Shown: positions 2,661 through 57,181, numbered from the stretch's first letter. The stretch is 64,000 bases of DNA from Candidatus Zambryskibacteria bacterium RIFOXYD1_FULL_40_13 (GCA_001824295.1 MHWY01000002.1:73354-137353), one strand, 5' to 3'. Made by a program: numbers and translations. The notes: generated by a model not told the origin, from the sequence alone.

Positions 2661-3062
2661 ATGGAAACAAAGTCAGGAGAAAGATATATAGAAACAGTTG
2701 GTCGCCGAAAGACAAGTGTGGCGCGTGTTCGTATTACACCAGCAACAAAGACCACTTTTTTGGTTAATGAAAAAGAGCTAGAAAACTATTTTCCAACAAA
2801 AGAAATGCAGAATATTGTGAGACAAGCTCTTTCTGATATCAAGGATAAATTCAAAGTCACTGTTAAAATAAACGGTGGTGGAATTCACTCACAGTCTGAA
2901 GCTGTACGACATGGTATAGCTAGAGCCCTAGTAAGCTTCGATTTAGAACTAAGAAAATCACTTAAGAAGGCAGGCTACCTAAAACGAGACCCTCGAAGTA
3001 AAGAGAGACGAAAATTCGGATTGAAGAAGGCAAGGAAGGCTCCTCAGTGGTCAAAACGATAA
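2661..3062 (+). CDS. rpsI: 30S ribosomal protein S9
   Basis: The product carries the S9 C-terminus ...GYLKRDPRSKERRKFGLKKARKAPQWSKR. Confidence 0.95.
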   Translation: METKSGERYIETVGRRKTSVARVRITPATKTTFLVNEKELENYFPTKEMQNIVRQALSDIKDKFKVTVKINGGGIHSQSEAVRHGIARALVSFDLELRKSLKKAGYLKRDPRSKERRKFGLKKARKAPQWSKR

Positions 3063-3077
3063 AGTCTTCTCCACATC

Positions 3078-3251
3078 ATGATTTATAGACACGCATAAAC
3101 CCCTATTGGGGTTTTGCTATTCTCGTCGATCAAGAAAACAATCTTCCTCGACACTGGCACTCTCGCAAACTCGGCTTTGCCTCAAACAATGCTTCGTGCT
3201 GACGTGCCTCGTCGTTGTTTTCTAATTGACTGCGAAATGTCTATAAATCAT
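3078..3251. repeat. Conserved ~150-bp intergenic element, copy A
   Basis: It has 13-bp complementary arms: ATGATTTATAGAC at 3078-3090 and GTCTATAAATCAT at 3239-3251. The arms enclose the rpsI terminator and a ~125-bp core (ctattctcgtcgatcaagaaaacaat...cgtcgttgttttctaattgactgcgaaatg). The core is nearly identical to positions 7289-7446. Confidence 0.6.
3097..3115 (+). terminator. Intrinsic terminator of rpsI (aaaCCCCtattGGGGtttt)
   Basis: A perfect 4-bp GC stem is followed by a T-tract, 35 nt after the rpsI stop codon. Confidence 0.6.
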
Positions 3252-3279
3252 GGTGTGTCGAATTGATGAAATTAAATAA

Positions 3280-3334
3280 GGAAAAACCGCCAGTCGTGTG
3301 TGACTGGGGGATTTCCCCAGCGCCACGATGGCGG
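3280..3334 (-). terminator. GC-rich intrinsic terminator T1 (ccgccatcgtg...cacgactggcgg + TTTTTCC on the minus strand)
   Basis: A long GC-rich hairpin is followed by a T-tract on the minus strand. It lies directly downstream of the small minus-strand ORF ending at 3335. Both of its ends are shared with T2 at 3750-3804. Confidence 0.6.
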
Positions 3335-3496
3335 TTATATGTTGAGGCTCCCATTTGCCCGAAGGGCAGTCTGCGCCTCCTGTGTACTTCGAAGTGTTTT
3401 TTCCCACTCGTGGTATCTCTTGAGCTGTTTCTCGAGCCGTTTGACCTTTCTCTCGAGTTGCTCTCTCGTCAACCTCTTCTTTAGTACTATTGCCAT
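3335..3496 (-). CDS. Small Lys/Arg/Glu-rich coiled-coil protein, 53 aa (MAIVLKKRLTREQLERKVKRLEKQLKRYHEWEKTLRSTQEAQTALRANGSLNI). Not in the ORF track.
   Basis: The ATG at 3496 is preceded by GGGAGGAAGG. The terminator T1 follows. The ORF sits in a GC-rich island with a3/a2/a1 gene organisation. Confidence 0.45.
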   Translation of the reverse strand: MAIVLKKRLTREQLERKVKRLEKQLKRYHEWEKTLRSTQEAQTALRANGSLNI

Positions 3497-3509
3497 GCCT
3501 TCCTCCCGG

Positions 3510-3686
3510 TTATTCTGTTGGGTCGCTATCGTCGCTCATCCCAAAGATGAACGACCCACACGGGCACGTCGGCCATTCGGCCAAAGCCCCTTCGGGCTGT
3601 GTCTTTGGGAGCTGACTGTGTTCCTCCTCGCTGAACTTCTTGCCGCAGGTCATGCAGTGGTAGATGGTCTTGATTACCTTCGACAT
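3510..3686 (-). CDS. Small Cys-rich zinc-ribbon-like protein, 58 aa (MSKVIKTIYHCMTCGKKFSEEEHSQLPKTQPEGALAEWPTCPCGSFIFGMSDDSDPTE). Not in the ORF track.
   Basis: The ATG at 3686 is preceded by GGAGGG, 9 nt upstream. The protein contains CxxC...CPC. The codon usage is GC-rich. Confidence 0.5.
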   Translation of the reverse strand: MSKVIKTIYHCMTCGKKFSEEEHSQLPKTQPEGALAEWPTCPCGSFIFGMSDDSDPTE

Positions 3687-3749
3687 GGTCGGTACCCTCC
3701 ATTTATCAATTTACCACCATTTAATACTCTGTCAATCAGATTTTATATA

Positions 3750-3804
3750 GGAAAACCGCCAGTCGTGCTAGGCTGGCGGAATTCCGCACAGCGCCACGTT
3801 GGCG
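3750..3804 (-). terminator. GC-rich intrinsic terminator T2, paralogous to T1
   Basis: The hairpin ccgccaacgtggcg...ccagcctagcacgactggcgg is followed by TTTTCCTATAT on the minus strand. It lies 13 nt downstream of the ORF ending at 3817. Confidence 0.6.
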
Positions 3805-3816
3805 GTGTTGGTCTGA

Positions 3817-4062
3817 CTAGACCTTGAAGGTGAACCTATAGTTACCAAATCTCACGGACGACCATGCACCCTCACCCTCGAGGTACCGTCGCCTCACCTC
3901 TGCGATCACTCGCTCTGTCGGGAGCGTGTTGATGTTGACCATGTACTCTGTCTCTCCCGGTCGGAACAGGCTCTCGAGTTTACTGTCGATCTCCACCTCT
4001 AACGAGGTGGCAACCCGCATCTCTTCGTCGGTCAGCTTCAAATCTCTCGGCTTGAGCGCCAT
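3817..4062 (-). CDS. Hypothetical protein, 81 aa, GC-rich ORFan
   Basis: The ATG at 4062 is preceded by AAGGGGG. The GC content is elevated against an AT-rich backbone, and the terminator T2 lies downstream. Confidence 0.55.
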   Translation of the reverse strand: MALKPRDLKLTDEEMRVATSLEVEIDSKLESLFRPGETEYMVNINTLPTERVIAEVRRRYLEGEGAWSSVRFGNYRFTFKV

Positions 4063-4159
4063 ATGGCACCCCCTTTCTTCTTCCTAAGTAATAGCACATA
4101 CCTTTGTATCTGTCAACTATTTTTGAATACTTTAAATACTATGTTAAAATACACACAAC

Positions 4160-5069: not shown

Positions 5070-5071
5070 TA

Positions 5072-5105
5072 AATGAGAACGCCGAGAACGATGGCGTTCT
5101 CGGCG
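5072..5105 (-). terminator. GC-rich intrinsic terminator (cgccgagaacg-ccat-cgttctcggcg + T-rich on the minus strand)
   Basis: A perfect 11-bp stem lies directly downstream of the minus-strand small ORF ending at 5109. Confidence 0.6.
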
Positions 5106-5108
5106 AGG

Positions 5109-5300
5109 TTACTTCTTCGTGACGGGGAACAGTCGAAGTGTCATGGAATCTTCGGGAGTTGCCGGCCAAGTGTTTGGACCGAGCATCAGCATACCGCCAG
5201 GCCCGCCGGCAACCCTCAACACTTTTGCGAGGATTCGGGCCTCTTCTGAGGTTTCTGTGATGAGCAGAACGTCATCTACGGTCTCTTCGATCAGCTTCAT
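5109..5300 (-). CDS. Small GC-rich ORFan, 63 aa (MKLIEETVDDVLLITETSEEARILAKVLRVAGGPGG...)
   Basis: The start is placed at ATG 5300, which has TAAGGAG 9 nt upstream. The ORF-track start at 5330 is probably too long. The GC content is elevated and the ORF has its own terminator. Confidence 0.55.
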   Translation of the reverse strand: MKLIEETVDDVLLITETSEEARILAKVLRVAGGPGGMLMLGPNTWPATPEDSMTLRLFPVTKK

Positions 5301-5369
5301 GTGCACACTCCTTACTAAACAATATAACATTATATAATAATTGTCAATTATAAATTTAAACTAAAAATT

Positions 5370-7271
5370 ATGAGTAAAACAATTGGTATAGATTTAGGAA
5401 CAACAAACTCTGCCGTGGCCATAATGGAGGCAGGAAATCCAAAAATATTAGAAAATGCAGAGGGTGCTAGAACAACACCTTCCATTATTGCTGTCTCCAA
5501 AACTGGAGAAAGAATTGTTGGTCTCTTAGCCAAGAGACAGGCAGTAACAAATCCAAAGAACACAATCTTTGGTATAAAGAGATTTATTGGTCACACATTT
5601 GATGATGAAGGTGTGCAGAAGGACAAAGCCGTAGTGCCTTTTGAGGTGCTTAAATCAACAACTGGTGGGGTGAAGGTAAAAATGTCAGATAAGGAATACA
5701 CACCAGAGGAAATTTCAGCAATGGTTCTTTCAAAAATCAAGGCGGATGTTGAAGCAAAGATTGGTGAGAAAGTTACAGATGCAATCATTACAGTACCTGC
5801 ATACTTTAACGACTCCCAAAGACAAGCCACAAAGGATGCTGGTGCTATTGCGGGGCTTAATGTCCTCAGAATCATAAACGAACCAACAGCCGCCGCACTT
5901 GCCTATGGATTTGATAAGGGCAAGAAGGAAGAAAAAATAGTTGTCTTCGACTTTGGTGGTGGTACATTTGATGTTTCTGTCTTGGAGGTTGGAGATGCTG
6001 TTGTGGAGGTAAAATCAACAGATGGAGACTCACACATGGGAGGCAAGGATATTGACCAAAAGATTATAAACTTCCTAGCAGATGAATTCAAAAAGGAGTC
6101 CGGAATTGATTTGCGAACCGATACTCTTGCATTACAGAGACTAGATGAATCAGCGGAGAAAGCAAAGATTGAACTTTCCACGGCCATGGAGTCAGAAATA
6201 AATATTCCATTTATCACATCAGACGCATCTGGGCCTAAACACCTACTCATTAAACTAAGTCGAGCAAAACTTGAAGAACTAACTAGTGAATTTATTGACA
6301 GAGCAATGGCTATCACAAAAAGGGCTATGGAGGCTTCTGGATTTGCCGTATCAGATATACACGAAGTTATCCTCGTCGGTGGTCAAACTCGTATGCCAAA
6401 AATGGCAGAGAAGGTCAAGGAGTACTTTGGGAAAGAACCAAACAAATCTATTAACCCCGATGAGGTTGTGGCTCTCGGAGCGGCTATACAGGGTGGTATC
6501 CTTGCAGGAGATGTGAAAGATGTCCTGCTCCTAGATGTTATACCATTGTCGCTTGGTATAGAGACAATGGGAGGGGTTGCCACAAAACTTGTAGATAGAA
6601 ATACCACTATTCCAGCCTCTAGATCACAAGTTTTCTCGACCGCAGCCGATAATCAAACTTCTGTAGAGATACATATTGTGCAAGGAGAGAGAGCTATGGC
6701 TTCGGACAACAAGTCTCTTGGAAGGTTTATCTTAGACGGGATTCCACCTGCACCACGAGGAATGCCACAAATTGAGGTCTTATTTGACGTGGATGCAAAC
6801 GGTATTTTGTCAGTAAAGGCAAAGGATAAGGCTACAAGCAAAGAGCAGTCAATCCGCATTGAAGCACGCTCAAGTCTGTCAAAAGAAGAAATAGAAAAGA
6901 TGCAAAAAGATGCAGAAATGCACGCCCAGGATGACTTGAAGAAAAAAGATTTGGTTGAAGCTAAAAATATAAGTGAACAGCTTATCTACACCGCCGAGAA
7001 ATCGCTTCGTGATGCTGGGGAGAAAGTACCAGCTGAGCTTCGGGTTTCTATCGAAAACAAAGTTACAGACCTTAAGAAAATAAATGATGGAGATGATATG
7101 GAGGCAATTAAGAAAGCCACAACAGAGCTTTCCACAGAGCTTTCCAAAGTAGGGGAGATAATAAACAAAGCCGCACAGGCCGAAGGAGCGAAGAGCGACG
7201 GAGGTGCCGGCACTCAGCAGAGTGACGACAAGGTACGTGATGCGGATTTTGAGGAGAAGAAGGCGGAATAG
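5370..7271 (+). CDS. dnaK: Chaperone DnaK (Hsp70)
   Basis: The product carries the Hsp70 signatures [16 protein letters not shown] and [11 protein letters not shown]. Confidence 0.98.
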
Positions 7272-7275
7272 TTTT

Positions 7276-7459
7276 CTTAATTTAGAACACGTATAAATCG
7301 TTGGTACGATTTTACTATTCTCGTCAATCAAGAAAACAATTTTCCTCAGTGCTGGCCCTTTCGCAAACTCCTCGTTGATTACAACTTCGTCAAACAGTGC
7401 TTCGGGCAGGCGCACTTCGTCGTTGTTTTCTAATTGACTGCGAAATGTTCTAAAATTAA
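7276..7459. repeat. Conserved ~150-bp intergenic element, copy B
   Basis: The arms are CTTAATTTAGAAC at 7276-7288 and GTTCTAAAATTAAG at 7446-7459. They are complementary to each other but differ in sequence from the copy-A arms. The core at 7289-7446 matches 3091-3239. Confidence 0.6.
7295..7314 (+). terminator. Intrinsic terminator of dnaK (aaATCGttggtaCGATtttt)
   Basis: A stem plus T-tract lies 24 nt after the dnaK stop codon. It occupies the same position as the rpsI terminator inside the conserved element. Confidence 0.5.
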
Positions 7460-7483
7460 GAAACTATTCCTCTGGTAGGAAAT

Positions 7484-7533
7484 ACGCAAAAACCCACCAA
7501 CGAAAGTGGACTAGTGCGTCCAGTGTTGGTGGG
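7484..7533 (-). terminator. GC-rich intrinsic terminator (cccaccaac...gttggtggg + TTTTTGCGTAT on the minus strand)
   Basis: The hairpin is followed by a T-tract. A near-identical copy lies at 7756-7804. It sits downstream of the small ORF ending at 7543. Confidence 0.6.
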
Positions 7534-7542
7534 GGGTGGTTG

Positions 7543-7707
7543 TTAGAGTTTCTTCGCGAGACTCTTTTCGAGCCATGATAGTGTAAGGAACACTGTCCCC
7601 ATCACACCACCAAGACCAATGCTCTTGGCGAAGGTGACTCCGAAACCCATACTGATAACACAGACGAGAGCGCCGAGTACCAGGCTTGCGATAGCCGATC
7701 TCTTCAT
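7543..7707 (-). CDS. Small hydrophobic protein, 54 aa (MKRSAIASLVLGALVCVISMGFGVTFAKSIGLGGVMGTVFLTLSWLEKSLAKKL). It is in a different frame from track ORF 7511..7744.
   Basis: The ATG at 7707 is preceded by GGAGGAC. The product looks like a signal peptide or transmembrane segment, and a terminator follows. The track ORF reads through the terminator hairpin and is rejected. Confidence 0.5.
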   Translation of the reverse strand: MKRSAIASLVLGALVCVISMGFGVTFAKSIGLGGVMGTVFLTLSWLEKSLAKKL

Positions 7708-7755
7708 GCAGGTCCTCCAAAATAAATAATATATCAGGAATCACAAATAAACAAT

Positions 7756-7804
7756 ACGCAAAAACCCACCAACGAAAGTGGACTAGTGCGTCCGTGTTGG
7801 TGGG
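7756..7804 (-). terminator. GC-rich intrinsic terminator, paralogue of 7484-7533
   Basis: It shares the cccaccaac/gttggtggg stem. It lies 5 nt downstream of the ORF ending at 7809. Confidence 0.6.
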
Positions 7805-7808
7805 TAGA

Positions 7809-8024
7809 CTACTTCAGGCTAGTCATTTTCCGAAGACGGTTGATGACGGCCTTGCCGCAGTAATTATCAGGCTCTGTCCGGTACCACAGGTTCGTCGATA
7901 CCGTGGATTTCTTGAAGCCTCTTTTCCGTAGCTGGGTCTCCACTTCCTTACGTGTGGCTGGGCCAAAAGGCCCATCGTTTCCCCAAATTGTTCCCGTGTA
8001 GTTCACGACATACTTGGTCTCCAT
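7809..8024 (-). CDS. GC-rich ORFan, 71 aa
   Basis: The ATG at 8024 has AAGGAGG 5 nt upstream. A terminator follows. Confidence 0.55.
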   Translation of the reverse strand: METKYVVNYTGTIWGNDGPFGPATRKEVETQLRKRGFKKSTVSTNLWYRTEPDNYCGKAVINRLRKMTSLK

Positions 8025-8158
8025 CTGTGCCTCCTTAACTAATAATACACCAAATAGTTAAGATAGTCAAGTGCAATAATTATCAAAAAATAGTATTATA
8101 AATTCTGAATTATTTGTAGCCATTCGTTGATTCGTATAATTCGCATATTCGTATCTTT

Positions 8159-13787: not shown

Positions 13788-15242
13788 TTACAATTTTTTT
13801 ATAGCTGTTTGTATGCGAGAAGCCGTCTCTTCTTTCCCAAGAATATAGATAAGGGTGAAGGGATCAGGGCTTTTGTCTTTACCCGACAGGGCAACCCTAA
13901 GTGGCCACAGAACTTCTCCCCTACCCTTTTCAGTAGCATAATCAAACAGTAGTGACTTTATTTTCTCCGTGCTAGTAAACAAATTATCGTCAGCTGACTC
14001 CAGCGTGCTTAGACAAAACTCAAGGTGCATCTTTGCAATTTTTTTATCACTACCCTTCCAACTCAGAAGCTCAGCATTATACTCTGGTGAGTGAAAATAA
14101 TACTCTAACTCCCCTGCCCCAACAAGAGCATCTATGTCTCCCCATTTTGATATATGGTCAAAAATTACGGGACACAGCTTCACTAGAAAACGTTCATCAG
14201 CAGAAATCGAATTACTTTTTAGTCTATTAATAATTTCAGTATTTCTCTCATTTTCAGACATCAGTTTCATATGTTCCTTGTTAAGCCAGTCAAGTTTTGT
14301 ACTGTTCAACTGTGCGCCAGATTTCTGTATTTTTGATATTTCAAAAACTTTTATTAATTCCTCAGTTGTAAATATTTCTTTGTCACCCCCAGGGTTCCAT
14401 CCCAGAAAAGCAAGGAAATTAATCATTGCCACTGGCAAATATCCTTCCTTCCTGTATTCCAAAATATCCTTAGCCCCATCTCTTTTCCCAAGTTTTTTCT
14501 TGCCTCCATCTGCCATAATATGTGGTAAGCACGCATATTCTGGTGGATTTACACCAAGAGCTCCATACACAGAAAGGTACTTTGGTGTTGAGGCAATATA
14601 TTCTTGACCCCTCATGACCAAAGTGACACCCATTTCAATATCATCAACTATGTGTGCAAAATTATATGTTGGATAACCATCACTTTTAATAAGAATAAAA
14701 TCATCAAGCATTTCAGGCCCAGCTGACAAATCCCCAAAAACCATATCGTGCCAGTGGTAGTCTTTCACGGTTGGAACCTTGAAACGCAAAGGCATTGTTC
14801 CATCCCAAGGAGGAGGATTCTGTGGTCTGAATTCACGAAAAAGAAAAGGTCTTTTTTCCTCTTCGGCTTTTTTTCTTAACTCTTCAATCTGCTCTTCACT
14901 TGTGTTATCGGTGTAAGCAAAACCACCATCAATTAATTTTTGTGCGTATTTTTTATACAAATCTAACCTTTCTGATTGTAAATACGTGGCACTCGGCCCG
15001 CCAATTCCAGGACCTTCATCCCAATTTAGCCCAAGCCATTTAAGTGACTCCTGTATGTGCTCGACAGAACCCGAAACCTCTCTTTCCTTATCAGTATCCT
15101 CAATACGCAGAATAAATGTACCGTTATTTTTCTTTGTCCACAGCCAGGCATACAAAGCTGCACGAACATTACCAACATGCATAAAACCTGTTGGGGATGG
15201 TGCAAATCTTGTTACTATTTTTTTGTCATTTATATTTTGCAT
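13788..15242 (-). CDS. gltX: Glutamate--tRNA ligase
   Basis: The product shows the class I HIGH motif (PSPTGFMHVGN) and a GluRS-like architecture. Confidence 0.93.
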   Translation of the reverse strand: MQNINDKKIVTRFAPSPTGFMHVGNVRAALYAWLWTKKNNGTFILRIEDTDKEREVSGSVEHIQESLKWLGLNWDEGPGIGGPSATYLQSERLDLYKKYAQKLIDGGFAYTDNTSEEQIEELRKKAEEEKRPFLFREFRPQNPPPWDGTMPLRFKVPTVKDYHWHDMVFGDLSAGPEMLDDFILIKSDGYPTYNFAHIVDDIEMGVTLVMRGQEYIASTPKYLSVYGALGVNPPEYACLPHIMADGGKKKLGKRDGAKDILEYRKEGYLPVAMINFLAFLGWNPGGDKEIFTTEELIKVFEISKIQKSGAQLNSTKLDWLNKEHMKLMSENERNTEIINRLKSNSISADERFLVKLCPVIFDHISKWGDIDALVGAGELEYYFHSPEYNAELLSWKGSDKKIAKMHLEFCLSTLESADDNLFTSTEKIKSLLFDYATEKGRGEVLWPLRVALSGKDKSPDPFTLIYILGKEETASRIQTAIKKL

Positions 15243-15284
15243 TTACTTTATGGACTTTATAAACTTTACAGACTTTCAACTATT

Positions 15285-16424
15285 CTATTTATCATGTTCC
15301 AGGGCAATGGCAACAATCTCTTTCGCTATTAACTTAGCTGAATCTTTTCTTGCAAAATCATTCGCAGATTTTATCATTTTTTCCTTTTCTCCTGGTGTTT
15401 CCAAAATTCTATCAATTTCAGATACAAGGAGACTATCGGCCAAATTCTTCTCTTCTATGACTATTGCTGCGCCGGATCTTGCATAGGAATACGCGTTAGT
15501 CCTCTGGTCGTGGGAGGTCGGTTCTGGGATTGGAATAATAATTGATGGTTTACCCCAAGAAGCAATTTCAAAAATTGTCGAGCCTGCCCTTGAAACGACA
15601 ATATCACAGAGACCAGCAGATGCGCGCAAGTTCAGCAGGTTTAGGTAATCAAAGGGTTTATATCTTTTTCTATCTGTGTTCCCGCGCAGAATGACATCTG
15701 CGACTTCTTGGATTGCCTTAAAGTTATTTTTTCCTGTTTGATGAATTACTTGATACTTACTTAAAAGTCTTGGCAGAGCATCCATGACTACCTCGTTTAT
15801 AAAAACCGCTCCTTGTGAACCGCCAATAATTAGAACAGTAGGAATATCCTCATCTAACCCGAGAATCTCGCCAGCACCAGTGGTTAATGGCTCACGAACT
15901 TCTTTCCTTAGTGGATTGCCTGTATAAGCCACTTTCTCCTTTTTGAAATAATTTATTGCCTCTGGGTAGGATATAGCGATTTTTCTAGCAAATTTACCGG
16001 CCCAGTTGTTAACCTTGCCAGGTGTGCTGTCAGATTCATGAATGACAACAGGTATTCTAAGTATTCTTGCAGCCAAAAGTGTGGGAAAGCTGGCATAACC
16101 ACCCTTACCGAAAACAACGTCTGGATATATTACATAAACTCTCCAGAGAGCATTTATAGAACCAAAAAAAATCTTAAACAAATCAATAAAATTCAAAAAT
16201 AAGTTTTTGATAGAAATTCTTCTTCTAATTTTTCCGGCACTGACAGGAACAAAGGTAATATTGTTTTCAAATAACAGCCCTTCGTTATATGGGTCAGTAG
16301 ACATATAATAAATTTCTGGCCTAAGGAGGTGATTTTCCTTTACCAGCTCATTTATTTCTTCTGCAATTGCAATAATGGGATAGAAGTGTCCGCCACTACC
16401 TCCACCAGTAAGTAATATTTTCAT
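15285..16424 (-). CDS. murG: UDP-GlcNAc:lipid I N-acetylglucosaminyltransferase
   Basis: The N-terminus is GGGSGGHFYP. The gene sits in the mraY-ftsW-murG neighbourhood. Confidence 0.92.
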   Translation of the reverse strand: MKILLTGGGSGGHFYPIIAIAEEINELVKENHLLRPEIYYMSTDPYNEGLLFENNITFVPVSAGKIRRRISIKNLFLNFIDLFKIFFGSINALWRVYVIYPDVVFGKGGYASFPTLLAARILRIPVVIHESDSTPGKVNNWAGKFARKIAISYPEAINYFKKEKVAYTGNPLRKEVREPLTTGAGEILGLDEDIPTVLIIGGSQGAVFINEVVMDALPRLLSKYQVIHQTGKNNFKAIQEVADVILRGNTDRKRYKPFDYLNLLNLRASAGLCDIVVSRAGSTIFEIASWGKPSIIIPIPEPTSHDQRTNAYSYARSGAAIVIEEKNLADSLLVSEIDRILETPGEKEKMIKSANDFARKDSAKLIAKEIVAIALEHDK

Positions 16425-21475: not shown

Positions 21476-22045
21476 TTAGTTATTTGCTGTATCTAGGTCT
21501 TCTTCCTTTTCTTCAGCAACATCTAGCTGTTGACGCAGCTCATTATACTCAGGTAATTCAGAAATATGGCTTAGACCAAGAAATCGTAAAGCATCAGCTG
21601 TTATATTATAACCTATTACCCTCATATCTGTCTCGCTATTTTTCTTCTCTATAAGACCTCTTAACAATAAATTCCGTAAAGAATACTGAGAATTCACACC
21701 TCTGATATATTCAATCTCCTTCTTACTAACCGGTCCCTTGTAGGCGATTATAGACAATGTCTCTATTCCAGATTTTCCTAAATCTTTTTCTCTCTCTTCT
21801 TTAATTATTTTTTCGATTGTTTCTGAATATTCTGGTGCTGTAGTAATAAGAACCTCATCGTTGTGAACCACAAGTCTCACACCCCGCTCGGACAAGGACT
21901 CGGCAAGACTCTTAGTAGCGACCAAAACATCCTCCTTGGATATATCCAGTGTTTTAGCCAGAAAATCAATACTGACCGGCTCAGCCAAATAAAAAAGTAC
22001 CGCTTCTATCTTATTCACTAATTGTCCTTGGTTTTCTTGCATCAT
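21476..22045 (-). CDS. scpB: Segregation and condensation protein B
   Basis: The product has ScpB winged-helix repeats. The gene lies downstream of scpA. Confidence 0.88.
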   Translation of the reverse strand: MMQENQGQLVNKIEAVLFYLAEPVSIDFLAKTLDISKEDVLVATKSLAESLSERGVRLVVHNDEVLITTAPEYSETIEKIIKEEREKDLGKSGIETLSIIAYKGPVSKKEIEYIRGVNSQYSLRNLLLRGLIEKKNSETDMRVIGYNITADALRFLGLSHISELPEYNELRQQLDVAEEKEEDLDTANN

Positions 22046-22091
22046 GAATTTACTTTACAAACTTTATAACTTTTTACTTTTAACCTGAAAA

Positions 22092-25367: not shown

Positions 25368-25384
25368 CTTTATATTGTATCAGA

Positions 25385-25440
25385 TTTTGTTTAAAACAGA
25401 AAAGTCCCAAGCGCAGAGGGCGCTTGAGGCCCTCCTGCTT
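25385..25440 (-). terminator. GC-rich intrinsic terminator after the ClpP-like gene
   Basis: The hairpin gcgccctctgcgc/agcaggagggcc is followed by CTTTTCTGTTTT on the minus strand. Confidence 0.45.
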
Positions 25441-25450
25441 GAGACTGCGT

Positions 25451-26017
25451 CTAAACTCGAGATGGATCACGAATGTCCTCTTCTTTCACGATGACTTGGT
25501 CAAGCAACCCAAGTGAGAGAGCATCACCCACGGGTAGCTGACAGTCAAGCTCGCACATTTTACGAATTTCTTCGTGCGATCTTCCTGTTCGGTTGACGAG
25601 AATTTCGTCGAGTTTTTTCTGGTCGGCCTCCATCGAATTGATGTAATCGGCAAGCATCATCGGATCTCTTGCCACATCAAGCCTGAACGCAGTACTTGTA
25701 ATGTGGTGGACCAGTATTCTGGAATGGGGCGTTGCTGTGCGCCAATCACAAGCCTGGAGAATCACTCCAGAGATTGAGTTTGCAATGCCATTCACAATAC
25801 CAATCTTATGTCCGACGTAGAACCTCAACAGATCGAAGATATCAAGTCCGGCAGTTACGTTACCGCCCTTACTTGTTATGTAGATCGTAATTGGCGGGGA
25901 GCCTCTTATGAGGAGGTTCCAAATCGCCGAGGATACGTACGCATGGGTTTCTGTCGTGACTTCTCCAGAGATGGACAATCGGTTCTGCGACAGAGCAATC
26001 GCTTGATCCTGTGTCAT
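25451..26017 (-). CDS. ClpP/S14-family serine peptidase (GC-rich, acquired-looking)
   Basis: The product contains ITSKGGNVTAGLDIFD (a ClpP signature), a candidate Ser (GIANSISG) and a candidate His (ILVHHI). It has an AGGAGG SD. The GC content is about 50% or more, against a backbone of about one-third. Confidence 0.75.
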   Translation of the reverse strand: MTQDQAIALSQNRLSISGEVTTETHAYVSSAIWNLLIRGSPPITIYITSKGGNVTAGLDIFDLLRFYVGHKIGIVNGIANSISGVILQACDWRTATPHSRILVHHITSTAFRLDVARDPMMLADYINSMEADQKKLDEILVNRTGRSHEEIRKMCELDCQLPVGDALSLGLLDQVIVKEEDIRDPSRV

Positions 26018-26099
26018 GGGGCCTGCCTCCTTGGGGGTGTACGGTCTAAGCTAACAATATGTGAGTTCAAAATTTTAGTCAAATATCGTGCATGTTTAG

Positions 26100-26134
26100 A
26101 CAAAAGAAATCCGCCACCCAAAGCTGGGTGGCGG
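26100..26134 (-). terminator. GC-rich intrinsic terminator after the ABC exporter (ccgccacccagctttgggtggcgg + TTTCTTTTG on the minus strand)
   Basis: A perfect hairpin plus T-tract lies directly downstream of the gene ending at 26148. Confidence 0.6.
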
Positions 26135-26147
26135 AAATTTACGCAAC

Positions 26148-28028
26148 TTACACAACAATTCCCTGGTCGTCAGCGAGCATCTTGAAAGTTCTGGAGATGC
26201 CGTAGAGTTCCTCAAACGACGAGGCTACTGCCTCAACCTGAGTGTCGCCATTTGTCAGCTCGTCGCTAGACCTGAGAACGACAAACTTGTCGCAGAGGTG
26301 CCTAACAGTAGAGAGCCGATGAGCAATGACCACCGCTGTGACATTCCCCGACAGAAGCTTCTGTAGCCCGGCCTGAACAAGCCTCTCGGTAGTTGAGTCC
26401 AAGCTTGATGTGGCTTCATCGATGAGCATCATTCGAGGACGCTTGATAGCGGCAGCTCCGATGATGAGCCTCTGTGCTTGCCCACCAGAGAGCTTGATTC
26501 CGTTTGTGCCAACTTCGGTATAGATGCCGTTCGTCAGACGCTTTCCGAAGTCAATCTGGAGGTCACGCATGAGGCTCCAGATTTCTGGGTCACCCATTTT
26601 CTGCTTTTCCTCATCACTGAGTGCATATGTCAGGTTGTAGCGGATACTTCCGTCGAAAATCTGAGCCTGCTGTGGAATGTATCCGAGAGTTCTAATCCAC
26701 GATGCGGAGTTGACCTGTCTCATGTCAATTCCGTTCACTAGGATTTTGCCGTTTGACGGATCCATCGAACGCAAGAGAAGTCGGGCCAAGGTTGACTTGC
26801 CTGCTCCTGACTGGCCGATGATTGCCACCTTCTGCCCAGCGTCTACCGCGAAGCTTACGCGCTGTAGTGCGTGTGGGTTTTCCTCTTCGTCTGTACTATC
26901 CAAGGTGGGGCCGTGTTCCGGGTATGTGTACGACACATCCTGGAACTCAATTGCTATCGGAGCATCCTGGAGGATTTCCACGCAACCCTCTGCATCCGTA
27001 GCTTCAGGTGGTATGGACAATGCCTCTATCTTGGCTTTGACGGCAGGCATGTTCCAGTTAATCATGTGTTCAATCCTGCCGATTTGCCACACACTTGATA
27101 CGATGGTACTTGTCCACATGAAGATAGGATACAAGTTGCCGATGTTCATGTGACCCTGCCACACCTGCCATGTGCCATAGCTAATGACAGTCATGAAGGC
27201 AAGCATGGTCGCAGTATCGCGAAAGGCGTTGTGCTTGATGAACCAGAGCCAGAACCTACGGTCATCCTTGAGGTTGTCGGCAAACTCGACCGACATCTCG
27301 CGAAGTTCCCTTGTGGACATGCCACTGGTCTTAACTCTCTCCACCTTGGACCATCGGTCAAGTCGCCTACGATTGAGAACACGGAAACGCTTGTCGATGT
27401 TTGTGCACTCCAAAACCACCTTGTGGTTAAGAAAGAGTGTCCATGTGATGTAAACCACGAACGAGAGACTGATTGCCAAACCAGAGACCGGTGAGACAAC
27501 CCAGATGAGAATGTAGGCAACCAGAAGAGTTGATAGAACCTGAAAACCTTCGAACAGGAGAAGCCCTTGAAGGTCTAGGAGTTTCCACCGACCCTTGTCA
27601 ATGTTGCCAACATTCAGAGTGCCACTGTGCTCAGCGTGTTGCCCCAAGGACTTCTCGAACATCATCCGTGTGATGTAGTCGTCGAGTGTACCCTGGAGAT
27701 AGCCAAGTATGAGCTCTCTGTAGGTGGCCTGCTTGAAGTGAAACAGTTTCTGGATTGCCATGAGCGCGAATGTCACGGCAATCCCTACCGCCACATACTC
27801 CCGACTTTTCTCCGCGAGACCGCGGAAAATTAGTGAGATTGTGAACGGGATTGTCATTTGAGTCAGGATGTTTGCGGACATGTAGCTAAACATTCTCCGC
27901 AACCATTTCACCTGCTCAGGCGATTCCAGAAACCTCCAAGTCCAAACAAGAACCCTTAGGGATTCCTTTGCACTTGAAAGGTATTCGGTAATCGTGGCCG
28001 GCGTTTTTTCTCTGTCATCGAAGTCCAT
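26148..28028 (-). CDS. ABC exporter with fused permease and ATPase (GC-rich island)
   Basis: The product has six N-terminal TM helices plus Walker A (GQSGAGKST), the ABC signature LSGGQAQR and Walker B (MMLIDEATS). The start was moved to ATG 28028 (MDFDD), which has AAGGAGG upstream. Confidence 0.85.
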   Translation of the reverse strand: MDFDDREKTPATITEYLSSAKESLRVLVWTWRFLESPEQVKWLRRMFSYMSANILTQMTIPFTISLIFRGLAEKSREYVAVGIAVTFALMAIQKLFHFKQATYRELILGYLQGTLDDYITRMMFEKSLGQHAEHSGTLNVGNIDKGRWKLLDLQGLLLFEGFQVLSTLLVAYILIWVVSPVSGLAISLSFVVYITWTLFLNHKVVLECTNIDKRFRVLNRRRLDRWSKVERVKTSGMSTRELREMSVEFADNLKDDRRFWLWFIKHNAFRDTATMLAFMTVISYGTWQVWQGHMNIGNLYPIFMWTSTIVSSVWQIGRIEHMINWNMPAVKAKIEALSIPPEATDAEGCVEILQDAPIAIEFQDVSYTYPEHGPTLDSTDEEENPHALQRVSFAVDAGQKVAIIGQSGAGKSTLARLLLRSMDPSNGKILVNGIDMRQVNSASWIRTLGYIPQQAQIFDGSIRYNLTYALSDEEKQKMGDPEIWSLMRDLQIDFGKRLTNGIYTEVGTNGIKLSGGQAQRLIIGAAAIKRPRMMLIDEATSSLDSTTERLVQAGLQKLLSGNVTAVVIAHRLSTVRHLCDKFVVLRSSDELTNGDTQVEAVASSFEELYGISRTFKMLADDQGIVV

Positions 28029-28116
28029 CTCACTCCTCCTTCTACACAAGCCCTAATTGTTGTTGAAGTTGTCAAAGAACTACTGTATCAGAGCAAAGCT
28101 CGATACACGGAAACTT

Positions 28117-31523: not shown

Positions 31524-31539
31524 AAAATAAAAGAAAAGT

Positions 31540-31585
31540 GACCCCTTTATCTTATCAAAGGGGCCACTTGGAGTCAAAGAAGATG
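31540..31585 (-). terminator. Intrinsic terminator after the P-loop / radical-SAM operon (CCCCTTTgataagatAAAGGGG + TCACTTTTCTTTTATTTT on the minus strand)
   Basis: A 7-bp stem is followed by a long T-tract. It lies between the end of the GC-rich island and the Nudix gene start. Confidence 0.55.
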
Positions 31586-31596
31586 CCACCAGTACA

Positions 31597-32124
31597 CTAG
31601 ATCCTACCTGACGACTTGAGATGATCCACTAGCGCGTCGGCCTCGAGTGCCCGGAGTGCCTCGCTGGCAACTCCGCTAAACGACCACTCAACCTGAGCGA
31701 GCAAGCATGTCTGGTGGCTGTGCCAGAAACGCTCACGCTTAATATCGAGCGCCATGTCCTCGGGGGTGCTTCGAGACAACCTGCATTTCTTGGGAACAAC
31801 GACACTCACCAACAAAGCCTCGGGCTCAATTTCAAGTACAGCCTTCCACTCATCAGGTGTGTGAATCGCGTCAAGCAGAACCACATCCTTTGAGTTTCGA
31901 TCGTACTTCATCAGCCTGAGAAGATGGTGCATGATTTCGTAACTCCCCATGTTGTGGTAGAGATCACGATACCATTCGGTGAACACTTCCTCGTTGTTGT
32001 CGATTGACGACCATTCGCGAAGAAGTTCTCTCTTCACAACATGTCGCCAACTGTAGTTATTAACAAAGAACTCCGAGAGATCACTCTTCCCAGAGCTGTG
32101 ATAACCAGCTATCCCGATGATCAT
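31597..32124 (-). CDS. P-loop NTPase/kinase-like protein (GC-rich island)
   Basis: The product has Walker A GIAGYHSSGKS at its N-terminus. It overlaps the upstream radical-SAM gene by 4 nt. Confidence 0.65.
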   Translation of the reverse strand: MIIGIAGYHSSGKSDLSEFFVNNYSWRHVVKRELLREWSSIDNNEEVFTEWYRDLYHNMGSYEIMHHLLRLMKYDRNSKDVVLLDAIHTPDEWKAVLEIEPEALLVSVVVPKKCRLSRSTPEDMALDIKRERFWHSHQTCLLAQVEWSFSGVASEALRALEADALVDHLKSSGRI

Positions 32125-33314
32125 TTTGACCTCATGAAATGGAGAGGTTGGACATCACTGCTCTTCAACGCCAGTGCGATCGCGAGACAGTTTGTCTTCG
32201 GTCCGGAAGTGGAAGAGTTGTAGCCGGGTAGCAGGAACCTCATGGACTCAATGTGTTGAGAGTCAACGAGTTTTCTCCAAACCCCAGAAAACCGCTCGTT
32301 CACGAGATTGCCGACCGACATTTCACCGAGCGGACCAAGAAAGCCACAGGTTTGCACATTGCCGTCTGGCAGAACCACCATTCCACGGTGACCTGCACTA
32401 CACGACTGACGTTCAAATGGAAGTGAAATCCGTGGTGCAACCTTGTCGTCCTTGATGTAGTGACCACGAACGTGCTTTGTCGAATCTGATGTCAAATGTC
32501 CGAGCCTCTTCCTCAGAACTTCATACTCTTCCTGAGAGAGCATTTCGCCTGACATGTTGTCTGCACGACCAGCAGGAATCAACCTGCGAATCATGACCGG
32601 CACGCTCAGATTTGAAAAAAACTCGGTAACGCGAACCACTTCATCAATGTTACTCTTCATGACGACAGTGTTCACCCTGACTGGGATACCGACATGTTTG
32701 AGCTCGATTATCCCCTTCATCGTTTTTCTGAAGGAACCAGCGCCTCTGATTGAGTCGTGAACACTCCTCATGCCATCAACACTAACGACGGCCAGGTTAA
32801 GACCAACATCTGCAAGTCTCCTTGCGATATCAGGCTTCACCAGTATGCCATTTGTGCCGATTGACGTTCGAAGACCATTGCGTCGCAGGAGCCTAATGAT
32901 GTCGTACACGACGTTGACCACGAGAGGTTCTCCGCCAGTGAGACGAACCTCTTGGACTCCAGAATTAATGAGATCTTGAACCAACCTAAGCCTTTGTGCG
33001 TCGGACATCTCGTTCGACATACGCCTACCTGAGTTGTTAAAGCAGAATGTGCAATTGATGTTGCACGCTCTGGTGATCTCAAAAAAAATGGTATCCGGTG
33101 CGCTGAAGTTGTTGCCCGGCAGGTAGGACGGCTCACGAATGAGCACGCTGTCCGTCGATAACTGAATCTCTCGCTGGAGATGTTCAGGTACACTACCGGA
33201 CTGAGAGATCGACTCGTACTCGTCTCTATTAATGTATGCGCGCTTGCCTGAGTCCGAATTAAACAGTGTACCACCAAAGACTTCTTTTCGAAGCAGTGCT
33301 TGTCCCTTAGTCAT
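32121..33314 (-). CDS. Radical SAM enzyme with a C-terminal SPASM-like Cys cluster and a ~90-aa N-terminal extension
   Basis: The product has CNINCTFC (CxxxCxxC) and a later Cys-rich segment (CSAGHRG...VQTCGF). The start was moved to ATG 33314 (MTKGQ), which has an AGGAGAG SD and lies downstream of a TTGACA-17-TATTAT promoter. Confidence 0.85.
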   Translation of the reverse strand: MTKGQALLRKEVFGGTLFNSDSGKRAYINRDEYESISQSGSVPEHLQREIQLSTDSVLIREPSYLPGNNFSAPDTIFFEITRACNINCTFCFNNSGRRMSNEMSDAQRLRLVQDLINSGVQEVRLTGGEPLVVNVVYDIIRLLRRNGLRTSIGTNGILVKPDIARRLADVGLNLAVVSVDGMRSVHDSIRGAGSFRKTMKGIIELKHVGIPVRVNTVVMKSNIDEVVRVTEFFSNLSVPVMIRRLIPAGRADNMSGEMLSQEEYEVLRKRLGHLTSDSTKHVRGHYIKDDKVAPRISLPFERQSCSAGHRGMVVLPDGNVQTCGFLGPLGEMSVGNLVNERFSGVWRKLVDSQHIESMRFLLPGYNSSTSGPKTNCLAIALALKSSDVQPLHFMRSK

Positions 33315-42822: not shown

Positions 42823-44067
42823 TTATTCAGATCTTAGTGCTTCTATTGGGTCCATTCTTGAGGCAGAACGAGCTGGAAAAACCCCAAAGAAAATACCTAT
42901 AGAAGCAGATACACCAAAGGCAAGTAAGACTGCGTAAATTGGTACGGAAAAAGTCCAGGTCATATTGGCATTTGTCGCGATTAGGGACACTACCCATCCC
43001 AGAAATGCTCCAAAAGCAATACCTATTATTCCACCAAAAACAGTTACCAAAACCGCCTCCATTAGAAATTCATTCATTATATCTCCCTCCCTGGCACCCA
43101 AAGCTTTTTTAAGGCCAATTTCTGCAGTACGCTCTGTCACAACAACATACATAATATTCATAATACCTACACCACCAACAATCAAAGAAATAGTTGCGAT
43201 TGCAATGAGAAGATAAGTGATTCCAGAAAAAATGGTATTGAATGTTGCCATGGCCTCATCCATGGTTTGAACACTGAAGTCATCTTTATATGGGTCAGTT
43301 ATATTATGGTTATCTCGTACCAAAATTTTTATTTGCTCTACGGTTGAATCGGCTTTGGTTATATCCGCCAACTGAATAATACCTATAGACATATAATCTA
43401 TACCCAATAATTTTTTTTGGGCAGTGGTGATTGGGATAAAGACGATGCCGTCTGTATCAGAAAGCGCTCCTTGTGATTCATACACTCCTATCACCTGAAA
43501 GTTCAAATTACCAAGTCGGAATAGTTTTCCAAGCGGGTCGTCTTGTCCAAACAAGTCCTCTGCGACCTTGCTACCAAGTATGGCAACGGTCGCGCCACTG
43601 CTATCTTCGGCCTCACTATATACCCTACCCTTTGCAAGTTCTGTTTTATCAAAATTAAAACGAGATGCTGACGAGGCATAATAGATTGTACTTTTTTTAT
43701 TACTTCTGTAGATAGCTAGAGCTTGGCCTGTAACTATTCCATAACTGTCAACAACATTCGGCAACTTTTCTATATCATCCAAATCCCTTTGTTTAAAACT
43801 TGTTATCGTAACACCACTGAAGGCAGAACTTATACTTTGTGAGTTTGAGGCCCTGTTCTTGGTTGTGGGAGGGACTTTGGTCTGAATAAATATTGTGTTG
43901 GTACCAAGAGTATCAACCTCGTTGTCTATAAGAGAGCGGAATCCTGCGCCAGCAGACAAAACTAGAATAACCGTACCAATACCAATAATAATACCAAGCA
44001 TTGTCAGGGCAGTTCGTCCGGGATTTGATTTAAGTGCTTTGATGGATTGTTTTAGTGCTGTAATCAT
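42823..44067 (-). CDS. ABC transporter permease, FtsX/MacB-like
   Basis: One N-terminal TM helix is followed by a large periplasmic domain and a C-terminal three-TM FtsX domain. Confidence 0.85.
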   Translation of the reverse strand: MITALKQSIKALKSNPGRTALTMLGIIIGIGTVILVLSAGAGFRSLIDNEVDTLGTNTIFIQTKVPPTTKNRASNSQSISSAFSGVTITSFKQRDLDDIEKLPNVVDSYGIVTGQALAIYRSNKKSTIYYASSASRFNFDKTELAKGRVYSEAEDSSGATVAILGSKVAEDLFGQDDPLGKLFRLGNLNFQVIGVYESQGALSDTDGIVFIPITTAQKKLLGIDYMSIGIIQLADITKADSTVEQIKILVRDNHNITDPYKDDFSVQTMDEAMATFNTIFSGITYLLIAIATISLIVGGVGIMNIMYVVVTERTAEIGLKKALGAREGDIMNEFLMEAVLVTVFGGIIGIAFGAFLGWVVSLIATNANMTWTFSVPIYAVLLAFGVSASIGIFFGVFPARSASRMDPIEALRSE

Positions 44068-44113
44068 AAATTTACTTTACTAACTTTATGGACTTTATAG
44101 ACTTTCGACTATT

Positions 44114-45385
44114 TTATTCGTACCTTAACGCCTCTATGGGGTCAAGTCTTGATGCTTTGAATGATGGATAAAGTCCAAATATAACTCCGGTCAAAATAGA
44201 AACACCCACGGCCAAGACTACAGAAGTAATAGAAATAACAAACTCCCAATCAAAATCCAGATACTGCATGAGCATAGCCATGAGATAGGAAACAATAACA
44301 CCAACGACAATTCCTATAAGCCCACCAATAGATGTAAGAATACTTGCCTCCAATATAAATTGTCGCATGATTACTCTGTTTGTAGCTCCAACGGCCTTTC
44401 TCAAACCAATCTCTCGTGTTCTCTCGGCAACAGTAACAAGCATAATATTGAGAATTCCAATACCGCCGACAATGAGAGCAACCGCGGCCATTGAGGTTAG
44501 AAACAAACTTAATGCTGATGTAATAGTGGTGAGCATCTCCACGGCACTTGCTTGGTTTCTCACGGTAAAATCTATATCGTCATCCGAAATGATATGGTGT
44601 CTCTGTTTCAACACCCTCGTTACATCATCAATTGTTTGATCAATATTATCCGCCGAATCCACTTTCAAACTAATGGCCTGTAAATGATGGATACCAAGAA
44701 GCTGTCCTTGTGCAATAGCTAGCGGAATAAATATTTGGTCATCTTGATCTTGAAAAAAAGCACTACCTCTGGGTGTTATCACGCCCACAATTCTAAGTGG
44801 TACACCACCAGCGTTTTCTTGTGAGGCACTTCTGACCTTGATGATTTGGCCAACTGGGTCAACGCCAGTGCCGTCAAACAAGGCACTACTTACCGTTGAA
44901 CCAAGTACCACGACATTGGCGGAACCATCTATATCTCCGGAATCCATAAACTGTCCCTCCTGCATTGTAAAGTTAACCACTTTTGGATACCCAGAATCAG
45001 TGCCAACAAAATTTGTATCAACGCTTTTGTTTTGCCAAGTCACAGTAGCCACACCGTTTACTACAGCACTTACACCAATAGCGTGCGGAACCTGAGAAGG
45101 AGAACGCAACGCTTCGGTATCAGCGTTAACAAGTGTAGTAATAATAACTCCGTAAACCTGCGCCGGTGGGCCCTTTGGATCACTTTTGCCAGGCTGAACA
45201 CTTAGGAGGTTTGAACCGAGTTTGTTTACTTGTCCCAAGACAAGCGACTGAGCGCCAGCCCCAAGTGAAATAATTATTATCACACCAGCAACACCGATGA
45301 CGATACCCAGCATAGTCAGAAATGACCGCCCTTTTCTTGCCAGAAGATTCCTTACCGTCATTTTAATTGTTGAGATAAAACCCAT
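44114..45385 (-). CDS. ABC transporter permease, FtsX/MacB-like (second paralogue)
   Basis: The product has the same architecture as the previous permease. Confidence 0.85.
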   Translation of the reverse strand: MGFISTIKMTVRNLLARKGRSFLTMLGIVIGVAGVIIIISLGAGAQSLVLGQVNKLGSNLLSVQPGKSDPKGPPAQVYGVIITTLVNADTEALRSPSQVPHAIGVSAVVNGVATVTWQNKSVDTNFVGTDSGYPKVVNFTMQEGQFMDSGDIDGSANVVVLGSTVSSALFDGTGVDPVGQIIKVRSASQENAGGVPLRIVGVITPRGSAFFQDQDDQIFIPLAIAQGQLLGIHHLQAISLKVDSADNIDQTIDDVTRVLKQRHHIISDDDIDFTVRNQASAVEMLTTITSALSLFLTSMAAVALIVGGIGILNIMLVTVAERTREIGLRKAVGATNRVIMRQFILEASILTSIGGLIGIVVGVIVSYLMAMLMQYLDFDWEFVISITSVVLAVGVSILTGVIFGLYPSFKASRLDPIEALRYE

Positions 45386-54946: not shown

Positions 54947-55159
54947 TCAGATCCTAGCGATCCTCGCATCGATGGCGTCAATCTTGTCCAAATAGTGGGC
55001 CCTGTAGAAACGAGCCATATCGACACCCTCTAGGTCGTCCTCCTTCCGAGCTTCCCTCTCAGCAATGCGCCAGTATACCGCATCTTCTCGGGCTAGCTGT
55101 CGACGCCAGCGGTACCATGCACGAAGAACACTTCTTTTGACCCAGGCAATGGTCCTCAT
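54947..55159 (-). CDS. GC-rich Arg/Trp-rich ORFan, 70 aa
   Basis: The ATG has AGGGAGGG 7 nt upstream. The GC content is elevated and the ORF has its own terminator. Confidence 0.5.
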   Translation of the reverse strand: MRTIAWVKRSVLRAWYRWRRQLAREDAVYWRIAEREARKEDDLEGVDMARFYRAHYLDKIDAIDARIARI

Positions 55160-56926: not shown

Positions 56927-57181
56927 ATGATACCGAGAAGGATTATGGAGCGGATGATTGAGAAGGCTCGAGTCCGCTACGCAAAGGAAATGGCGGCCTA
57001 CAAAGGCGGGCTAGTGAGAAAGCCACCAAGCTTCCAGAGCATTAAGTTCGCGATCCTCCTTGAGGAGGGATACGACCTCATGGAGTCACCCAATGCCATG
57101 GCAGAGCTCACTTCTGCCTACAATCGGGAACGGGAACGAAGAAAGGCTCTGTGGAGAGAAAGAATCTCCAGGGGTGCCTAG
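56927..57181 (+). CDS. GC-rich ORFan, 84 aa
   Basis: It has a consensus promoter, an AAAGGGG SD and a downstream hairpin terminator. The GC content is elevated. Confidence 0.55.
   Translation: MIPRRIMERMIEKARVRYAKEMAAYKGGLVRKPPSFQSIKFAILLEEGYDLMESPNAMAELTSAYNRERERRKALWRERISRGA

Follow-up and report, generated by a model that had tools for sequence, protein, structure and literature searches.

In the CPR bacteria genomes are tiny, yet the lineage studied here keeps hypervariable arrays of fast-evolving orphan microgenes, antisense among the essential genes rpsI, grpE, dnaK and dnaJ, and the small genes of these arrays are followed by repeated GC-rich palindromes. What are the palindromes, and how did copies of them come to stand behind different genes? 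The 64-kb stretch of DNA that was analyzed as a whole (the window) has a GC content of 38%, that of an AT-rich genome, and by its GrpE homologues it belongs among Zambryskibacteria/Paceibacterota-like CPR bacteria. Its plus strand reads rpsD-rpoA-rplQ-rplM-rpsI, grpE, a 102-aa ORF, dnaK and dnaJ. Three short GC-rich insertions break this backbone (3063-4159, 5070-5369 and 7272-8158). The identical sequence was also present on contigs of 306 kb and 458 kb and in many samples, and the neighborhood was unchanged everywhere.

A sequence-only reading of the window had proposed that the first and last insertions are built of tandemly added cassettes, each closed by the same imperfect palindrome, with a logic resembling integron cassettes or REP-like repeats. 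The proposal was right in part: the units are modular and variable and each ends in a module, and the integron or REP mechanism was unsupported. We regard the interest of the locus as moderate; it lies mainly in the CPR context, in the unusual conservation of the modules and in an undescribed family of structured elements, termed E, at the edges of the arrays.

Palindromic modules and their microgene units

The features of the arrays are collected in Table 1. In both islands the order is gene, module, gene or genes, module, as the sequence-only reading had stated, and the genes are all on the minus strand, so each module stands at the 3' end of a transcription unit.

Table 1. Features of the microgene arrays and their flanks in the window, in order along the plus strand
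Feature	Coordinates	Strand	Description
rpsI	2661-3062	+	left flank of array 1; ORF, with Pfam Ribosomal_S9 on the identical contig
E1 copy 1	3067-3262	+	three-way junction: P1 stem 3067-3091/3238-3262, P2 small terminator-like hairpin with U-run, P3 long arm
T1	3280-3334	-	predicted intrinsic terminator of the g2-g1 unit; T1 family, alpha subtype; -33.5 kcal/mol, z -6.65, then UUUUU; gene end/module end 3335/3334 (g1)
g1	3335-3496	-	53-aa coiled-coil-like orphan; GC3 0.57; no Pfam or PADLOC family
g2	3510-3686	-	58-aa CxxC...CxC orphan; GC3 0.75
Promoter-like site, g2-g1 unit	3708-3735	-	TTGACA-16-TAAATT, upstream TG
T2	3750-3806	-	predicted intrinsic terminator of g3; T1 family, beta subtype; -30.4 kcal/mol, then UUUU; gene end/module end 3817/3806 (g3)
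g3	3817-4062	-	81 aa; small ~80-aa family; GC3 0.74
Promoter-like site, g3	4088-4116	-	TTGACA-17-TATTAC, read from sequence
Single-unit mini-island	5080-5347	-	terminator 5080-5105, g6 5109-5300/5330, promoter 5319-5347
dnaK	5370-7271	+	left flank of array 2; ORF
E1 copy 2	7265-7470	+	P1 stem includes the dnaK stop codon
T3	7481-7533	-	predicted intrinsic terminator of g4; T3 family; -22.7 kcal/mol, then UUUUU; gene end/module end 7543/7533 (g4)
g4	7543-7707	-	54-aa hydrophobic orphan
T4	7753-7804	-	predicted intrinsic terminator of g5; T3 family; -21.7 kcal/mol, then UUUUU; gene end/module end 7809/7804 (g5)
g5	7809-8024	-	71 aa; weak similarity to the dnaJ-adjoining gene of L017 and L016
Promoter-like site, g5	8042-8070	-	TTGACT-17-TATTAT; back to back with the dnaJ promoter region

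T1 and T2 have both ends in common and differ in the middle. One shared end reads GGAAAA(A)CCGCCAGTCGTG, and a search of the window with its 18-mer, allowing at most one mismatch, gave 2 matches where 0.03 were expected; the other reads CAGCGCCACG(A/T)TGGCGGT (94%). Overall the two modules are ~85% identical with a 2-nt indel, and in the middle the inner stem shows a compensatory change (GGGG/CCCC versus GCGG/CCGC). T3 and T4 are 100% identical over 41 nt (7481-7521 and 7753-7793), then differ by a 1-nt indel and agree over 12 further nt, for which the chance expectation in shuffled sequence was 0.00. The sequence-only reading had described both pairs in much these terms. T1 and T2, and likewise T3 and T4, are true paralogues, with a similarity far beyond chance. 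Sequence comparison revealed no core common to the T1 and T3 families.

An intrinsic terminator consists of a stable GC-rich stem-loop followed directly by a U-run on the transcribed strand. When folded on the minus strand, all four modules gave a two-tier GC hairpin of about -22 to -33 kcal/mol (z -3.6 to -6.7) with 4-5 U directly after it, and hairpin plus U-run formed on the gene strand only. Each module starts ~5-10 nt past the stop codon of a co-oriented minus-strand gene, and a TTGACA/TATAAT-like promoter site and a strong GGAGG-type SD precede every unit. Taken together, the hairpin, the U-run, the position after the stop codon and the separate promoter and SD identify T1-T4 as Rho-independent terminators of the small minus-strand units, with transcript ends that are predicted from the DNA. 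Segments of T1 and T3 were also picked up by a consensus terminator scan. Across the family alignments there was no variation in the 3' arm, in the U-run or in a few bases beyond it, the 5' arm changed mostly to G.U-compatible bases and the inner stems varied by compensatory changes; the 5'-arm and compensatory changes are those expected under selection on a minus-strand RNA hairpin, and pairing kept in this way is a further likeness to Rho-independent terminators. The T hairpins differ from the usual ones in being unusually long and two-tiered (50-60 nt) and in being duplicated within one spacer. The gene-proximal half of the module was more variable than the distal half.

The GC3 of the microgenes (0.56-0.75, compared to 0.28-0.39 for backbone genes) marks them as real coding genes of distinct composition. 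That this composition stems partly from frequent recombination, by way of biased gene conversion, is speculation. No significant Pfam or PADLOC match pointed to a microgene function. For g3, a PDB sequence profile search returned coiled-coil noise only, and the AlphaFold model (pLDDT 87) had no Foldseek match in the PDB with E < 0.3; its homologues belong to its own small family of ~80 aa, with roughly a dozen cluster representatives. The small proteins, the g3 family included, are candidates for host-interaction or conflict functions. GC3-rich orphan microgenes of the same design, with promoter, SD and unrelated GC hairpin terminators, also occur at 54947-55159 (minus strand) and 56927-57181 (plus strand) of the window, and the repeated modules are thus a special case of a general pattern of self-contained units. 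In one related species (L016 below), an 87-aa gene occupies the position of g6.

The same spacers in related species

Syntenic loci from seven related species were collected, mostly through GrpE homologues (76-93% identity) and for L025 through the g3 homologue P0124. L014 (GrpE 93%) has two T1-family modules between rpsI and grpE, 100% identical over 55 nt and each behind a g3 paralogue, and three T3-family modules behind three different genes between dnaK and dnaJ. L019 (87%) has a degenerate solo T1 in the first spacer and one T3 unit in the second. L021 (82%) carries one T1 unit and two T3 units, the first of which starts directly after the dnaK stop codon, and L016 (82%) has one T1-family module, its dnaK-dnaJ spacer being partly masked. 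One T1 unit with a 120-aa gene was found in L020 (76%), and a g3-family gene with a diverged T1 in L025; both have a different terminator between dnaK and dnaJ. L017 (80%) has no gene unit between rpsI and grpE and a single microgene with a different terminator between dnaK and dnaJ, and neither module family was found in either of its spacers. The T1 family was thus seen in the rpsI/grpE spacer of the window (2 copies), L014 (2), L016, L019, L020, L021 and L025, and the T3 family in the dnaK/dnaJ spacer of the window (2), L014 (3), L019 and L021 (2), with one to three copies per occupied spacer and a gene content that differs between species.

Each module family has only two copies in the 64-kb window, and in ~25 related loci copies were found only in the same spacer. 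A T3 21-mer matched in the JGI metagenomes only the L014 and L019 species, at the same locus, plus one chance-like sequence, among the matches listed, and neither family was present in viral contigs, again among the matches listed. The sequence-only reading had named confinement to these loci as an outcome that would speak against its cassettes; over the window, the ~25 loci and the collection scans (that for T1 covering viral contigs), this was the outcome obtained. A phage or plasmid origin was considered and rejected, as three sequence patterns had no viral-contig match and a blastn search with island 1 had none in phage or plasmid collections.

Between the window and L014 the modules are 91-97% identical (96.8% for T2 and L014 4981-5042), compared to 74-83% for rpsI, grpE and dnaK, and the adjacent genes could not be aligned. 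Such conservation also sets the modules apart from ordinary Rho-independent terminators. Of the T1 subtypes, alpha is represented by T1 of the window, L019 and L021, and beta by T2 of the window and L014; L014 combines two T3 subtypes, one of them common to L019. A block of ATTCGT/ATTCGC-rich direct repeats (ATTCGTTGATTCGTATAATTCGCATATTCGTAT) lies upstream of dnaJ in the window (8109-8155), and a block of the same type lies upstream of dnaK in L014 (6587-6633), L017 (6934-6977) and L020 (~7110-7230). It is probably a heat-shock operator. This block too is 87-93% identical over ~45 nt between the window and its relatives; short functional non-coding DNA other than the T modules is therefore under strong constraint as well.

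The genes in the spacers behaved differently from the modules. A g3-family gene adjoins grpE in the window, L014 and L025, and unrelated genes take its place in L016, L020 and L021 with T1 kept. Beside dnaJ, where the window has g5, L017 has a gene resembling it and L016 one with a weak resemblance. The two g3 paralogues of L014 are 30% identical in amino acid sequence, each has an identical T copy, and the palindromes flanking them are duplicated at a spacing of 528-529 nt. The notion of a cassette-like build therefore held insofar as the units are self-contained, end in the same palindrome and vary in number and identity between species at the same two sites. It did not hold for all genes as added cassettes, for at least some are long-term residents, as the g3 family beside grpE in three species attests. 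The presence or absence of units, by which the sequence-only reading had hoped to recognize cassettes, likewise gave a divided answer: number and content differ between species, but 24 contigs of the same species all had the same neighborhood, with no polymorphism.

Variable gene content between the same flanking genes, seen here in the window and in L014, L016, L017, L019, L020, L021 and L025, is what defines a minimal mobile element (Saunders and Snyder 2002, as quoted in PMC3787668). The arrays resemble such elements in their fixed flanking genes (rpsI/grpE and dnaK/dnaJ), in the variation of whole genes and in having no mobility genes of their own. They differ in their CPR host (Paceibacteria/Zambryskibacteria-like), in consisting of microgenes of 50-120 aa antisense to housekeeping operons and in that each unit ends in a site-specific terminator copy; their exchange by transformation is something we infer. 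With the genes that flank them, the T1 and T3 families offer alignable landmarks for tracking gene gain and loss, and possibly transformation-driven exchange, in uncultured episymbionts.

Two further observations concern the surroundings of the T1 modules. AT-rich palindromes of 26-28 bp (TTTGGTACAATATATTGTACCAAA) lie beside them in L014 (4846-4871, 4930-4957 and 5458-5485) and L021 (~150-178); they show symmetric compensatory variants, and their 11-6-11 layout is reminiscent of Xer sites. In L014 (4541-4657) and L019 (492-610) the last ~31 nt of rpsI occur a second time, in a window-like version, ~86 nt downstream of the real stop codon, with a hairpin-containing insert between the real end and the second copy. 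The arrangement resembles the trace of an insertion that brought a new end to the gene.

How units may be gained, lost and copied

We think it rather probable that the modules are terminators of minus-strand microgene units in hypervariable spacers of the minimal-mobile-element type, copied by duplication or unequal homologous recombination. A unit comprises promoter, SD, GC3-rich microgene and terminator, lying antisense in the rpsI/grpE or dnaK/dnaJ spacer. Each spacer has a terminator lineage of its own, passed down across the clade, and the terminator would halt convergent transcription just short of the 3' end of rpsI or dnaK, the arrays being insulated by these highly conserved terminators. 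A resident gene sits beside the downstream backbone gene (the g3 family at grpE, g5-like genes at dnaJ), and extra units are gained, lost or replaced between species. Every added unit ends in a copy of the local terminator, which would come from a tandem duplication of the kind that the two L014 g3 paralogues suggest; the alternative route would be homologous recombination of the unequal or Campbell (single-crossover) type with two terminators as partners. Paralogy, terminator anatomy, locus specificity and variability between species are seen in the sequences themselves, and the route of recombination is inferred. Neither an intermediate nor a junction of such recombination was found in the sequences compared. 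DNA taken up from relatives may contribute to the exchange of units, for which the terminator subtypes common to several species are indirect support. Natural competence with homologous recombination has been described in a CPR bacterium of another phylum, Saccharibacteria (PMC10187176), and transformation-driven exchange is plausible for competent CPR cells, competence being known from Saccharibacteria and not from this lineage.

The terminators would stay near-identical while the genes diverge, both through selection for the RNA hairpin and through gene conversion. The near-identity extends to unpaired positions of the modules between species whose synonymous sites are apparently saturated. 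It exceeds what hairpin selection alone would give, and recent transfer or a sequence-specific function in binding or recombination would fit as well.

How much of this could have come about by chance, or within a single lineage? Convergence of independent GC-rich terminators might be suspected from the fact that all GC-rich microgenes of the window end in GC-rich hairpins of similar style. The identity of T3 and T4, however, includes the loop and the tail, that of T1 and T2 includes unpaired positions, the chance expectations are 0.00-0.03, and orthologous copies are present in five to six other species; the alignments refute convergence, to which we assign practically no probability, and bear out the sequence-only reading on this point. 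A purely local history, in which tandem duplication and gene conversion of terminators acted with no exchange between lineages and the genes are either old diverged paralogues or arose de novo in situ, fares better. It would explain the L014 pair, with its identical T copies and regularly spaced palindromes, it agrees with the observation that copies within a genome are often the most similar (T3 and T4 of the window; copies a and b of L021), and the modules were never found outside the locus in the loci and collections scanned, among the matches listed. The distribution of subtypes does not follow from it: the window combines alpha and beta T1 modules, of which other species have only the one or the other, and L014 mixes two T3 subtypes, one also in L019. 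Nor does it predict that the resident gene of L016, L020 and L021 was replaced with T1 kept. Most neighboring genes within an array are unrelated, with no detectable similarity of g1 or g2 to g3 or of g4 to g5, so simple tandem duplication is not the whole story, and we consider a local history alone unlikely.

Integron cassettes are mostly promoterless and are expressed from a common Pc promoter; their attC sites have conserved cores (R'' RYYYAAC and R' GTTRRRY), and the associated IntI is a tyrosine recombinase. Repeats of the REP/BIME type occur in many copies dispersed in extragenic regions genome-wide. The T modules are not dispersed in the manner of REP/BIME repeats, having two copies per family in 64 kb and same-spacer copies in ~25 related loci. 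In an integron-like or Xer/pdif-like cassette system, the modules would be attC-analogue sites served by a recombinase from another part of the genome, with termination as a secondary role. As in integron cassettes and CALINs, small ORFs each have an imperfect palindrome of 50-60 nt behind them, the palindromes of one array are alike, many of the ORFs are orphans and array length and content vary between species; the modules are far better conserved than their surroundings, loops included, the gene-proximal half is more variable than the distal half, and the 28-bp palindromes with 11-6-11 layout beside the T1 modules of L014 and L021 recall Xer sites. As cassette boundaries these palindromes were rejected, since they turned up in L014 and L021 alone and the window has none. 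The sequence-only reading had noted no integrase in the window, and this was confirmed in that a phmmer search with XerD and Hin queries gave no match at E <= 10 among 165 window ORFs of at least 80 aa. Read from the sequence, T3 contains CACCAAC...GTTGGTG, two positions off the attC consensus, and T1 has no AAC/GTT pair. Unlike integron cassettes, moreover, the units have their own promoters and SDs and their modules have a U-run and a terminator role; each array has an unrelated module family confined to a single locus, with no copy in viral contigs and no extra T3 locus in the JGI metagenomes, among the matches listed, and the resident g3 family speaks for vertical descent at this position. 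Accordingly, we gave up an attC-like or REP-like logic in favor of canonical minus-strand terminators, and we hold a dedicated cassette system to be highly improbable.

A bolder combination would let the terminators double as portable recombination sites of a CPR cassette-capture system, driven by RecA or an unrecognized recombinase with no dedicated integrase. Circular units of microgene and terminator would be excised and then re-inserted at a cognate terminator after natural transformation, building up antisense arrays behind highly expressed housekeeping genes. Were the modules recombination sites, they would represent a new cassette system, which is very unlikely on present evidence.

E elements and other features around the arrays

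An element of ~190 nt, E1, abuts the left edge of both arrays, its two copies being 80% identical. Among the matches listed, an E1 20-mer was found at nine loci in eight CPR MAGs (Saccharibacteria, Paceibacterota, Zambryskibacteria and others). An alignment of 11 sequences supported a three-way junction of 51 pairs, 27 of them covarying; pairing was 93%, compared to 76% in shuffles (reached by 0 of 500), and the covariation score was 0.41 as against 0.13, with slid controls at ~0.07. The closing stem P1 is copy-specific in sequence with pairing kept, and it can include the upstream stop codon (that of dnaK in the window and of yebC in L005). Counts of G.U and A.C were roughly equal on both strands. 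Variants of the same architecture, E2 and E3, were found in L014 (4670-4845 and 8971-9138), L016 (5357-5552), L017 (5796-5970), L019 (3767-3902), L020 (9147-9311), L025 (~3485-3690) and L013 (532-706); they have junction motifs such as CUGCGGAUG in common with E1, and in all but L013 of these loci they stand at positions equivalent to those of E1. Different E subfamilies coexist in one genome in L013 and L005. The elements are found in both orientations, with several in 8 kb of L013, and some stand where there is no cassette; they are therefore independent of the arrays.

Two other interpretations of E1 were rejected. A protein-coding remnant was suggested by a 60-aa minus-strand ORF that is open in L005, but the apical lengths vary by 6, 7, 8, 10 and 18 nt, which are not all multiples of 3, and the hairpin covaries. 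That E1 serves the arrays as an attachment site, or always accompanies them, is contradicted by E elements without cassettes (L005 and L017) and by cassettes without E (L021 and the rpsI side of L019). There was no Rfam match to E1 at the gathering threshold, tRNAs being the only matches in the window and 14 related loci, and a permissive scan of 3040-3350 gave chance-level matches only. On our reading of their sequences, the E elements may be a dispersed REP/ERIC-like structured repeat in which a putative bidirectional terminator of the upstream gene is embedded. Like REP/BIME, ERIC and Correia-type repeats, and unlike the T modules, they are dispersed, structured, imperfect palindromes of 130-200 nt in intergenic DNA, often right past stop codons, in either orientation and with subfamilies coexisting in a genome. 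They differ from those repeats in that the conserved part is the junction core with its terminator-like hairpin and the closing stem is copy-specific and may take in the upstream stop codon; they have no TIR/TSD signature and no Rfam match. We found no description of these elements in the literature on integrons and attC in Patescibacteria and on palindromic intergenic repeats in Parcubacteria. With their strong covariation and absence from Rfam, E1, E2 and E3 suggest that Patescibacteria contain a class of RNA or DNA element not described before.

In E1 copy 2 the P2 hairpin (TCGTTGGTACGATTTT, 7298-7313) shows 81% complementarity with the A-run arm of T3 (7488-7503) and T4 (7760-7775). This is probably a coincidence because L011 has the same P2 sequence. 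Elsewhere in the window, an intergenic ACTTTA-rich repeat of ~65 nt (...ACTTTATGGACTTTATAGACTTTC.ACTATT.TATT) occurs at 15226-15290 and 44064-44119, with a weaker copy at 22033-22074. Two larger GC-rich islands (25380-28054 and 31528-33307; 50% GC, GC3 0.51-0.61) have terminators that are GC hairpins unrelated to T1 and T3. One island encodes a ClpP-like protein of 188 aa and an ABC transporter of 633 aa, the other a 175-aa P-loop protein and a 421-aa protein that is radical-SAM-like by reading only; together they may form a peptide-modification and export cluster.
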